This document shows positions 27,368 through 31,509 of a DNA stretch of 64,000 nucleotides, piece by piece; the stretch's first letter is position 1, and each line of letters opens with the position of its first letter. Location: the IMG/VR virus record IMGVR_UViG_3300023283_000076, positions 96,001 through 160,000 of that record, one strand, 5' to 3'. A program made the position numbers and the translations under genes. The DNA is from a virus (lineage: Duplodnaviria; Caudoviricetes). The notes below the pieces were generated by a model. That model saw only the letters and a program-made list of their open reading frames with translations. It was not told the DNA's origin and searched no databases.

Positions 27368-28150
27368 TTAGTAATACTCAAGTTTTATATTTCCATGTTC
27401 ATCTTCATACAAATACGAGCAAAATTCCACCCAGCATCCACAATTTAAATATCTTATATCATCAATTATTTTGTCTTCCGCATAATGTATGTGCCCACAA
27501 ATAACGCCATCCGCATCATGTTCTGCAGCACAATTTACAACCAAATTTTCATAATTATTAATATATTGTACTGATCGTTTAACACTATTTTTCACCCATT
27601 GTGCCAAACTCCATTCCTTTAAATTAAACATTCGTCTAATTTTGTTTAGTAGTCTATTTAAGATTATAATAAGTTTATAGCTACAGTTTCCTAATGTATA
27701 TATAATAGGATACATTCTAACTAATCCATCGAACTCGTCCCCGTGAAGAATAAAAAATCTGTCACCGTTTTTTGTAGTATAAACGTCATTATATTTTATT
27801 GTTATTCCATTAAAAGTTACACCTGCGGGAGACTCTTTTAAAAATTCTTCTGATAAAAAGTAATCATGATTCCCTCTTATATACGTTATTTGCACTCCCT
27901 TGTCTGCCATACGAAAGAACTTTTTAATTATTTTTCTATGTTTAGACCAAAAAACCCTATGATTAAATCCTGTCATATCTATAATGTCACCAACAAGGAA
28001 AATTTTATTAATAATATAACCTCCCTCATTGTTTTCTAAAGATTTGAGAAATTCATATAATTTTTCATGTTGGCAATTAGGATTTCCAAGGTGAATATCA
28101 GATAACCATATAGACTCAATATGTGTATTTTTATTTTTTTCGTTTTTCAT
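27368..28150 (-). CDS. PlcP-like metallophosphoesterase (phospholipase C / UDP-diacylglucosamine hydrolase-like)
   Basis: WLSDIHLG..CQ, LVGDIID, GNHD, HGDEFD, WSLAQWVKNSVK.SV.YI..YE, DGVICGHIH. Confidence 0.85.
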   Translation of the reverse strand: MKNEKNKNTHIESIWLSDIHLGNPNCQHEKLYEFLKSLENNEGGYIINKIFLVGDIIDMTGFNHRVFWSKHRKIIKKFFRMADKGVQITYIRGNHDYFLSEEFLKESPAGVTFNGITIKYNDVYTTKNGDRFFILHGDEFDGLVRMYPIIYTLGNCSYKLIIILNRLLNKIRRMFNLKEWSLAQWVKNSVKRSVQYINNYENLVVNCAAEHDADGVICGHIHYAEDKIIDDIRYLNCGCWVEFCSYLYEDEHGNIKLEYY

Positions 28151-28232
28151 TCGTGGGCGGTCACTTGTCAACTGCTGATTTATTTATCTTCTTGTTATAG
28201 AAGTTACTATATTACAAAACAGTTACAACAAA

Positions 28233-28381: not shown

Positions 28382-28396
28382 ATAAATGGGAGGGGA

Positions 28397-28468
28397 TGCC
28401 GTTGAAAGGATTCGAGCCTTTAACTTTTTCCTATCAAGGAACTGCTCTGCCAATTGAGCTACAACGGC
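28397..28468 (-). pseudogene. Degenerate tRNA-Ile(GAT)
   Basis: 6-nt anticodon loop TTGATA, C54, no encoded CCA. Confidence 0.7.
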
Positions 28469-28483
28469 AATTTATATTATTTA

Positions 28484-29978: not shown

Positions 29979-30296
29979 ATGATTACTAAAAAAGAATTTA
30001 AACAACTATTAAATAATTTAAAAGCATCTGCTAAAAAACGTAACATCCCCTTTGAATTAACAACGGAAGACATAGATTATATAGGAATACCATTAACATG
30101 TCCAGTATTAAACATACCTATATATTTTAACAAGGGTCAACCGAAAGATAATTCGATATCATTTGACAGAATAGATTCAAGTAAAGGATATACTCGGGAT
30201 AATGTGGTAATAGTATCACACAGAGTTAATAAACTTAAATCCAATGCGGCATTCGAAGAAATGCAGAAAATATTTGAATTTTATAAAGATCTATAA
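29979..30296 (+). CDS. HNH-like endonuclease family protein
   Basis: CPVL...SFDRIDSSKGYTRDNVVIVS..VNKLK. Confidence 0.75.
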   Translation: MITKKEFKQLLNNLKASAKKRNIPFELTTEDIDYIGIPLTCPVLNIPIYFNKGQPKDNSISFDRIDSSKGYTRDNVVIVSHRVNKLKSNAAFEEMQKIFEFYKDL

Positions 30297-30343
30297 AAAA
30301 GCCCCCATCCGGGGGCTCTCGGTCGGTATAACAGAGCTAAAAA

Positions 30344-30685
30344 CTAACTAGCTCCGCATGTCCCCTCACCACATGCTCCTTCTTCATCTTCTGATTCTTC
30401 ACCACAAGATCCCTCACCGCATGATCCTTCTTCATCTGCAGATTCTTCACCACATGCCCCTTCACCACATGCCCCTTCAGAATCTTCACTATCGCCTTCT
30501 TCACCACAGGAGCCTTCACCACAAGAACCTTCCTTGTCATCTTCTGTAGCATTTAGTGGCATGCCAGTAGTCTCCGCCATGAATGGATTAACGCCATTTT
30601 CTAAACCTAGTTCCGAGGCCGATGCTACTCCTGCCATAGTGGTTAGTCCTGCTAGTGTTGCAATTGTTAATTTATTAGACTTCAT
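30344..30685 (-). CDS. HvfA-like secreted EGxCG-repeat protein (putative MNIO/DUF692 RiPP precursor)
   Basis: Signal peptide, NPF motif, eight EG[S/A/T]CG motifs in four tandem pairs; own terminator at 30297-30318. Confidence 0.8.
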   Translation of the reverse strand: MKSNKLTIATLAGLTTMAGVASASELGLENGVNPFMAETTGMPLNATEDDKEGSCGEGSCGEEGDSEDSEGACGEGACGEESADEEGSCGEGSCGEESEDEEGACGEGTCGAS

Positions 30686-30788
30686 ATTATACTTCTCCTT
30701 TTTTGTGTTTTTAACTTATCGTTCTATTAGAATGTTCATATTACTATAAAGTTCAATTAATTACCATACGTAATTATACATATGATGA

Positions 30789-31229
30789 TTAGTGAGCTAA
30801 CTTATATGGCTTTATTATATTATACAATTCCACATCCTTTTCGGTTAAATGTGGGTATGTATACATATTCAAATCCATATTATTATTATATATGGACTCA
30901 GGTAGCACAATCCCAACGGAGGTTAATGCACCATTTAATGCGCCCTTTTCCTCTGTAAAATATGCAACAGGATAATCCGTGCCTTTATTTGTATTGATAT
31001 TCAACATATTGATCAAATCTTGTAAGTTTTTCTGCGGGCCTCCGTTTAAAAGGATCATAGTTTTATCTTCTTCCATCCATCGATTAAATATTTTACTAGC
31101 CACATTACTCGTAACCTGATTATATTTGGTCGCCATCACTTGAATAACATGGGCTGCTTGTATTCCATGTTGTATGGAAGAAAGATACATGTTTCCGAAA
31201 AAATATCCTATGCAATTTTCATTATTCAT
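30789..31229 (-). CDS. Peptidyl-tRNA hydrolase 2-like protein
   Basis: NMYLSSIQHGIQAAHV...W....KTMILLNGG...F.EE..ALNGALTSVGIVL. Confidence 0.75.
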   Translation of the reverse strand: MNNENCIGYFFGNMYLSSIQHGIQAAHVIQVMATKYNQVTSNVASKIFNRWMEEDKTMILLNGGPQKNLQDLINMLNINTNKGTDYPVAYFTEEKGALNGALTSVGIVLPESIYNNNMDLNMYTYPHLTEKDVELYNIIKPYKLAH

Positions 31230-31509
31230 ATTCTAAACCTTTTATTTTAATTTCTCTATCAAGCGGTATGGTTTGACAATTAAATTCTTTTAAGACTGCA
31301 CCTTCAGCGAAAGCTATAGCCCAACAATCTTCTACCGTAAGAACAGGTGAGTTTTTGCAATAGGAATATGCGACTCTTTTATCCAGTGTAGCTCTTATTA
31401 ATGCTTGAATGATTGCTTGTTCCGGTGTTTTCTTTGATGGATCTATAAACGTTTGATATATAAGATAAATATAACCAGATTCTTCAGTATTTAAATTTTC
31501 TTTGGTCAT
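31222..31509 (-). CDS. Hypothetical protein
   Basis: ORF in operon. Confidence 0.55.
   Translation of the reverse strand: MTKENLNTEESGYIYLIYQTFIDPSKKTPEQAIIQALIRATLDKRVAYSYCKNSPVLTVEDCWAIAFAEGAVLKEFNCQTIPLDREIKIKGLEYE

Follow-up and report, generated by a model that had tools for sequence, protein, structure and literature searches.

A jumbo phage gene for an HvfA-family precursor without maturase genes in the same record, and its possible dependence on host enzymes

We have identified in a salt-pan jumbo phage a solitary gene for a precursor of the HvfA family, and found no gene for either of the enzymes that modify such peptides in the same record. The peptide family itself is known, and the orphan state of the gene is not new in itself because stand-alone precursor genes are known in bacteria; the novelty is the viral location of an orphan substrate gene. 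The explanation we consider best, to which we give slightly more belief than doubt on sequence grounds, is that the phage captured a substrate gene of the Wenzhouxiangellaceae type, whose product would be matured by the HvfBC enzymes of the host and would boost periplasmic buffering of copper or oxidative stress.

The window that we analysed (64000 nt) comprises bases 96001–160000 of a jumbo phage record of 270653 bp with 34.5% GC, which is linear, has no end repeats and is approximately 79% complete according to CheckV. It contains 17 tRNA genes, HNH endonucleases and members of PHROG families, and a helicase/A1-like/TerL/SSB/UvsX/helicase module lies elsewhere in the phage genome. These data show that the precursor gene lies in a phage, as the original prediction had assumed. 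TerL is 49–51% identical over 94–99% of its length to the proteins of Xoo-sp13, XacN1, CM1 and RAS14, and the gene order of the TerL module is common to our record, XacN1 and Xoo-sp13. By TerL the phage groups with the jumbo phages of Xanthomonas and Stenotrophomonas, which indicates distant kinship and not genus-level membership. The cultured relatives measure 309–385 kb compared with 270 kb for this record, and stretches of approximately 42 kb from three of them have 40–49% GC, 15–25 points lower than their Xanthomonas and Stenotrophomonas hosts (approximately 65% GC). DNA of the window was present in two runs of a single 2023 study. We also noted a tRNA-like gene at 28394–28469 (minus strand), reported by ARAGORN with undetermined identity and a two-base ‘anticodon’ (ga), which is placed between tRNA-Leu(GAG) and a 188-amino-acid ORF.

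The precursor gene, its parts and its neighbours are arranged as follows.

29979–30296, plus strand: HNH-type endonuclease gene, convergent neighbour (phrog_3322, E 4e-31), at the same position in the sister contig L006
30295–30320, minus strand: intrinsic-terminator-like hairpin with a GCCCCC/GGGGGC core, followed by U6 (from folding)
30344–30685, minus strand: hvfA-like gene, a 113-amino-acid precursor plus TAG stop (ORF and translation)
30347–30532, minus strand: core, residues 52–113, four double repeats EGxCGEGxCG (motif positions, charge and NF050137)
30533–30616, minus strand: post-signal N-terminal region, residues 24–51, including NPF at 30581–30589 (alignments A2 and A3)
30617–30685, minus strand: Sec-type signal peptide MKSNKLTIATLAGLTTMAGVASA, residues 1–23 (inspection, hydropathy and alignment)
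30695–30700, minus strand: ribosome-binding site AAGGAG (read from the sequence)
30789–31229, minus strand: 146-amino-acid phage protein, PHROG 3668 ‘hydrolase’, upstream neighbour (phrog_3668, E 4.7e-31)

All the details first read from the DNA, i.e. a stand-alone gene of 113 codons with a signal peptide, an NPF motif, eight EG[S/A/T]CG motifs in four pairs and a terminator, were confirmed. The signal peptide has n, h and c regions, with Lys2, Lys5 and a hydrophobic stretch, and aligns with those of bacterial homologues; inspection together with a Kyte–Doolittle profile predicts cleavage at ASA|S (residues 21–24), after Ala23. The NPF motif occupies residues 33–35, and in alignments A2 and A3 Phe35 is invariant and Pro34 is present in at least 90% of the sequences. 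The eight motifs start at residues 52, 57, 70, 75, 86, 91, 102 and 107, so that the double repeats begin at residues 52, 70, 86 and 102 with periods of 18, 16 and 16 residues. Position 3 of the motif is Ser four times, Ala three times and Thr once, and the linkers are composed only of Glu, Asp, Gly, Ser and Ala. The core contains eight cysteine residues and no lysine or arginine, and the predicted mature peptide of 90 residues, with these eight cysteines and a single lysine, has a computed charge of approximately −28. When the sequence was shuffled with its composition preserved, none of 100000 shuffles contained three or more motifs, the maximum being two.

The ribosome-binding site is spaced 9 nt from the ATG. 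The terminator hairpin has a GC-rich stem and a fold energy of −19.1 kcal/mol; a simple terminator scanner did not flag it. A promoter scan of the precursor gene returned only weak σ70-like matches at chance level. Two overlapping ORFs (30337–30552, minus strand, and 30358–30549, plus strand) are by-products of the repeats of the precursor. An AlphaFold2 model of the precursor, built from an alignment of 33 sequences, had a mean pLDDT of 48 and no secondary structure, and the β-helix described for longer members of the family did not appear in it.

The assignment to the HvfA family, also originally predicted, was upheld by profile searches. The NCBIfam model NF050137 (KCGExKCG_twice, HvfA family) matched four stretches of the phage precursor with 49 bits (E 3.3e-13), compared with a cut-off of 19.5 bits. 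The equivalog model NF050188 for Haemophilus HvfA gave 37.6 bits, under its cut-off of 95, and the phage protein is therefore no orthologue of HvfA proper (NTHI1441). No match to Pfam or the PHROGs was found. A search of 5.8 billion proteins with the precursor yielded 293 matches, the best named ones being ‘HvfA family’ proteins from Wenzhouxiangella, Wenzhouxiangellaceae and Xanthomonadales MAGs, followed by Thioalkalivibrio. The phage protein is thus a member of the HvfA family, or Buf_EGKCG type 1, the precursors of captophorins. Members of the Buf_EGKCG type have a variable count of repeats of approximately 17 residues, each with two EGxCG motifs (PMC12452194), and the number of double repeats is four in the phage precursor and three in that of its sister phage. 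By inspection, the phage precursor has the N-terminal Sec signal that family members carry instead of a classical RiPP leader. It lacks the lysine before the cysteine (EGKCG) of the ‘Lys-Cys group’; this lysine marks the commonest subgroup and does not define the family, because Wenzhouxiangellaceae members encoded in hvfABC operons are also without it. Linkage to genes for an MNIO enzyme and a DUF2063/HvfC partner is likewise absent, in a record that is only partly complete.

In the bacterial systems, HvfB is an MNIO iron enzyme that acts with its partner HvfC; the EGxCG cysteine residues are modified in the cytoplasm and the peptide is then exported by Sec. That HvfB and HvfC make a heterocycle on cysteine, as the original prediction stated, still stands, whereas the oxazolone/thioamide chemistry does not: the heterocycle has been revised to a 5-thiooxazole and the class named captophorins (PMC13097082). 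A captophorin is recognized by the conversion of cysteine residues into 5-thiooxazoles, with a loss of 4 Da each and absorbance at approximately 305 nm, and by Cu(I) binding.

The closest known relatives are the HvfA precursors of Wenzhouxiangella and Wenzhouxiangellaceae (P0006 and the metagenomic P0004 and P0005), which are of similar size (111–113 amino acids) and likewise have a Sec signal and NPF. P0006 is annotated at NCBI as an ‘HvfA family oxazolone/thioamide-modified RiPP metallophore’. These precursors and the phage protein are collinear and 50–60% identical, share the same core start DDKEGSCGEGSCGE, and have four double repeats in which position 3 is Ser, Ala or Thr instead of Lys, acidic linkers, and a C-terminal EG[AS]CGEG[TS]CG followed by two residues. 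However, the Wenzhouxiangellaceae genes belong to rnf-nth-hvfA-MNIO-hvfC(-doxX) loci with 65–68% GC, whereas the phage gene is solitary with a GC3 of 0.24; the signal peptide and post-signal region of the phage protein show no sequence relationship to theirs and include a five-residue insertion; and the phage core, unlike their precursors, is entirely free of lysine. HvfA/oxazolin of nontypeable Haemophilus influenzae is similarly an exported peptide of approximately 95–113 amino acids with EGxCGEGxCG repeats (PMC11252979), but it differs in having three repeats with Lys at position 3, two additional disulfide cysteines and an hvfX-A-B-C operon. FonA/fontiphorin and NgoA/gonophorin, captophorins of the ‘Lys-Cys group’ (PMC13097082), have the repeat grammar of the phage core in common with it, but are encoded in chromosomal three-gene clusters and have Lys-rich cores, in contrast with the Lys-free, strongly negative phage peptide. 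A parallel in gene arrangement is provided by the stand-alone bufferin/Buf_EGKCG genes, which lack MNIO linkage and in some cases form single-gene transcription units (PMC12452194); these lie on bacterial chromosomes, whereas the phage gene lies in a virus, and substrate and enzyme would therefore sit in two different genomes.

The Lys-free, very acidic repeats had been regarded as unusual, a view that did not survive comparison with bacterial operons, since such repeats are the norm in Wenzhouxiangellaceae precursors within complete hvfABC operons. The genes for the closest bacterial homologues (loci L004, L005, L024 and L105) immediately precede those for MNIO and HvfC, which are followed by doxX in the L004 operon, and the bacterial precursors of 111–112 amino acids are collinear with the phage protein and also have four double repeats. 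The L004 MNIO is 81–83% identical to those of Wenzhouxiangellaceae MAGs. Among 64 precursors encoded beside 80 related MNIOs in GTDB species, nearly all were Lys-rich EGKCG proteins; only four had no Lys at motif position 3, all of them from Wenzhouxiangella or Wenzhouxiangellaceae MAGs. One of these four ends in EGACGAS, close to the EGTCGAS of the phage. Lys-free acidic repeats are therefore the mark of one halophilic lineage, the Wenzhouxiangellaceae, and in a halophilic setting such acidity of a periplasmic peptide is understandable. In the Wenzhouxiangellaceae-type loci L004 (2024–9978), L005 and L024, the hvfA-MNIO-hvfC genes always follow an rnf cluster and nth (endonuclease III), a neighbourhood that ties copper-peptide genes to a redox complex. 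A separate observation concerns locus L051 (CAVYIJ010000003.1, labelled ‘uncultured Halobacteria archaeon’), in which an EGKCG/EF-hand precursor is accompanied by an MNIO that shares 66% identity with the Wenzhouxiangellaceae enzyme; this is probably a mis-binned bacterial contig and would otherwise be an archaeal captophorin cluster.

A second phage copy of the gene was found on L006, a 3.4-kb phage contig from run SRR23862438 (Namib salt pans). Both the window and L006 have, in the same order, genes for a TerD-like 707-amino-acid protein, a small HNH-like protein, the PHROG-3668 protein, the precursor and the convergent HNH endonuclease. The two precursors are 88% identical at the amino acid level over aligned codons, with a dN/dS of 0.14 over 97 codons, although the adjacent PHROG-3668 proteins have diverged to 57% identity. 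Their sole length difference is the in-frame loss from L006 of one 16-residue double repeat, leaving six motifs compared with eight. Substitutions within the core are confined to Ser/Ala exchanges at position 3 and to the linkers, and the signal peptides are identical at 22 of 23 residues. NPF is replaced by NLF in L006, so that the motif is present in the window precursor as originally described but is not strictly conserved. Pairing of the terminator stem has been kept by changes on both sides (GCCCCC/GGGGGC compared with TCCCCT/AGGGGA in L006), and GGAG also precedes the corresponding ATG. The GC3 of the phage precursor falls within that of the phage ORFs (0.264±0.062), compared with 0.69–0.75 for bacterial homologues, and its codon use is fully phage-like. 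Because of the low dN/dS, the clean repeat loss, the compensated terminator and the phage-level GC3, we regard the precursor as a working, long-resident gene that is under purifying selection, and no fresh passenger. A recently acquired passenger without a role for the phage might be expected in an accessory region with many tRNA and homing-endonuclease genes, but the constraint on the sequence, a synteny kept in the second phage despite the divergence of the neighbour, and a GC3 at the phage mean and approximately 45–50 points under any bacterial homologue make this hardly credible.

The intergenic region upstream of the precursor has otherwise diverged between the two phages, apart from two short blocks (30716–30726 and 30764–30777, minus strand) that read xATAATTAyGTrTG and TAATAGAACGA and may be promoter or regulatory elements. 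A TATAAT/CATAAT box approximately 90 nt upstream of the precursor is conserved in L006, although we do not claim it as a promoter. A 95-amino-acid ORF (31222–31509, minus strand) that separates the small HNH-like gene from the PHROG-3668 gene is missing from L006, and represents a gene-sized indel between close relatives adjoining the precursor region.

The near-invariant signal peptide also bears on the proposal that the phage peptide is a decoy or competitor, which would saturate or mislead the HvfBC enzymes, the DoxX partner or a copper-stress sensor of the host and so blunt or re-time its stress response. A substrate look-alike without enzymes, with a leader unlike the host type, would suit such a role; however, a Sec signal is needless for a cytoplasmic decoy, and a weaker metal defence of the host in the latent period offers no obvious gain for a lytic phage. 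We consider a decoy very improbable, and the decoy role raised in the original prediction, if purely cytoplasmic, fits the conserved export signal poorly.

No other phage copy was detected by tblastn and blastn against 50697 phage genomes, a protein result that is weakened by the low-complexity filter of BLAST, and no match was found in plasmids, or in IMG/VR and GTDB genomes by peptide-pattern scans with the phage protein. The three nearest cultured jumbo phages, XacN1, Xoo-sp13 and RAS14, are without an HvfA-family gene, and a literature search returned no paper linking bufferin, MNIO and phage. When 2.9 million IMG/VR contigs were scanned with a degenerate DNA pattern for E-G-x-C-G-E-G-x-C-G, 13 loci emerged, of which only L020 encodes a true family member; the others were chance matches, short fragments and L017. 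The L020 gene (11399–11845 of IMGVR_UViG_3300042010_000252; 27445 bp, 57% GC) encodes a chimaera of EGKCG repeats and EF-hands, a fusion that corresponds to the ‘second type’ of Leprevost et al. (PMC12452194). An SRAP gene is located approximately 1.1 kb upstream, in the opposite orientation, and a Pfam scan of seven neighbouring ORFs revealed no MNIO. The L020 gene may be the flank of a prophage rather than a phage gene. L017 (2245–7920, minus strand, of IMGVR_UViG_3300046171_000243; 323 kb) was rejected, the motif being antisense to a 1891-amino-acid APSPQ/ASSPQ-repeat protein; this antisense reads ACGEGACGEG and mimics the HvfA motif, a trap for motif-based precursor mining. In two bacterial loci (L106, 1623–3345, and L107, 268–1990), the gene for an EG[S/A]CG-type precursor, P0018, comes directly after those for an ECF sigma factor and a DUF3379 protein, and the flanks hold no MNIO gene, an apparently maturase-less, sigma-controlled arrangement.

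The original prediction had noted that no DUF692 or DUF2063 gene is recognizable in the window, and this remained so when the search was extended to the whole record: profile searches of all 270653 bp found no PF05114 (MNIO), PF09836 (DUF2063/HvfC) or PF07681 (DoxX), and two bacterial query proteins gave no match. As a positive control, the family model recovered the precursor in the same genome search with three matches over cut-off. As the record is only approximately 79% complete, a maturase could sit in the missing part. A maturase pair of the phage's own within the missing 21% or so of the genome, which would make the product host-independent, is compatible with a linear record that has no end repeats and is shorter than its cultured relatives. 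We nevertheless consider this quite improbable: in every bacterial locus with a nearby MNIO the precursor gene abuts the genes for MNIO and its partner, whereas the precursor genes of the phage and its sister are solitary, with their own terminator, between phage genes, and the nearest cultured relatives have no gene of this family at all. Since the phage has the substrate gene but, in this record, neither modifying enzyme, it most likely relies on enzymes of the host.

Could a host maturase modify the phage peptide? The substrate requirements of FonBC have been defined in vitro (PMC13097082): it modifies only double-repeat constructs, with an obligatory Cys at position 4 and either Gly or Ala at position 5; position 3 may be Ala, Thr or Arg but not Glu or Phe, Pro is rejected throughout, and no individual residue ahead of the core is indispensable. 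Similarly, a truncated HvfA without its signal peptide and the 20 residues that follow still received all six modifications (PMC11252979). All eight motifs of the phage precursor and all six of the sister phage obey the in vitro rules of FonBC. Modification of the phage peptide by a host enzyme is plausible, because Ala and Thr are tolerated at position 3, double repeats are what the enzyme requires and the leader is dispensable. Near the two ends of the L004 MNIO are an Arg-Arg pair (N-terminal) and an Asp-Phe pair (C-terminal), which resemble, by description, the specificity and catalytic residues of FonB, a resemblance only. A predicted complex of the L004 MNIO, HvfC and the mature phage peptide received a score that was inseparable from that of a control in which the MNIO was replaced, and thus weighs neither way on binding.

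The peptide might instead act unmodified, as an exported, acidic, eight-thiol chelator of Cu(I), Zn or other soft metals resembling metallothionein, or as a scavenger of oxidants, in which case the host maturase would be irrelevant. The absence of a maturase from the record and the free divergence of the phage leader are in keeping with this, as is the existence of stand-alone precursor genes in bacteria, such as those of L106 and L107. Sizeable proportions of the Buf1 and Buf2 precursor genes have no MNIO linkage, and stand-alone precursor genes occur in all three precursor families (Leprevost et al. 2025, PMC12452194). However, the bacterial stand-alone precursors are usually accompanied by an MNIO elsewhere in the genome, and the grammar that the enzyme requires, E-G-small-C-G twice with Gly at position 5, has been kept in the 8+6 motifs of the two phages. 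Moreover, free thiols would tend towards disulfides in the oxidizing periplasm; unmodified HvfA was isolated with about −8 Da (PMC11252979). Action without modification is therefore, in our judgement, unlikely, although it deserves some weight. We infer that borrowing of the host maturase is the best reading, from the published substrate tolerance, the purifying selection and the presence of an MNIO in 52 of the 61 Wenzhouxiangellaceae genomes sampled.

A host and donor of the Wenzhouxiangellaceae type is our best guess, one that we would back slightly sooner than not; it is in line with cultured relatives of the phage that infect Xanthomonadales. Run SRR23862438, the source of the sister contig, belongs to a metagenomic study of mats and halites from Namib Desert salt pans, in which Wenzhouxiangellaceae were 40-fold enriched in halites; the same paper lists IMG 3300022719 and 3300023214, the sources of L004 and L005 (bioRxiv 10.1101/2022.02.18.481119). 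The GC content of the phage differs from that of the candidate hosts (approximately 60–68%) by some 30 points, a wider gap than in the cultured relatives. Some Lys-type precursors of Microbulbifer come close behind the top Wenzhouxiangella-like one in a Smith–Waterman ranking, so that the choice of donor depends on motif composition together with the HMMER ranking. Two further sources of host information were set aside. Leader residues 1–51 match only the sister phage, no bacterial leader being alike, and were dropped as an indicator of host or donor. A metallophosphoesterase encoded at 27368–28171 has full-length Wenzhouxiangellaceae matches with 32–40% identity, but identities reach 43% across the Gammaproteobacteria and are no higher in the Wenzhouxiangellaceae, so that it is uninformative; no claim here draws on the one unpublished genome in that comparison.

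We therefore propose, conditionally, the following sequence of events. The precursor gene would have been captured in the distant past, its donor being a halophilic gammaproteobacterium of the Wenzhouxiangellaceae type, the lineage to which the host probably belongs too. The peptide made during infection would be the stoichiometric, consumable part of the system, whereas the enzymes, being catalytic, would outlast the shut-off of host transcription. Pre-existing host HvfBC would modify the peptide in the cytoplasm, and Sec would export the modified peptide, with cleavage after Ala23. The acidic 8.8 kDa product would then add to the periplasmic buffering of copper or oxidants during the prolonged latent period of a jumbo phage. 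We put at about even the chance that this is a RiPP pathway split between virus and host, in which a phage precursor and a host MNIO/HvfC pair give a periplasmic copper-binding 5-thiooxazole peptide. Cyanophage psbA, a phage auxiliary gene that supplies a fast-turnover component of the host, offers an analogy only: there too the virus supplies the consumable part and the host the rest, but the proteins and the process differ and there is no homology.

The captophorins (oxazolin, bufferins and fontiphorin) are among the most numerous RiPP classes and are tied to copper and oxidative stress. A virus gene for the substrate alone that is under purifying selection implies that the peptide, and not the enzymes, is limiting in vivo, that a foreign precursor can enlist the enzymes despite its unrelated leader, and that buffering of copper or oxidants matters for phage infection within metal-rich hypersaline habitats. 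The phage precursor also provides a simple test case for leader-independent recognition by an MNIO and its partner. If our proposal is true, the phage gene would serve metal or oxidative-stress homoeostasis as a viral auxiliary gene and offer a natural instance of a RiPP enzyme that works on the substrate of another genome, and metal-chelating RiPPs would join the list of phage auxiliary functions.
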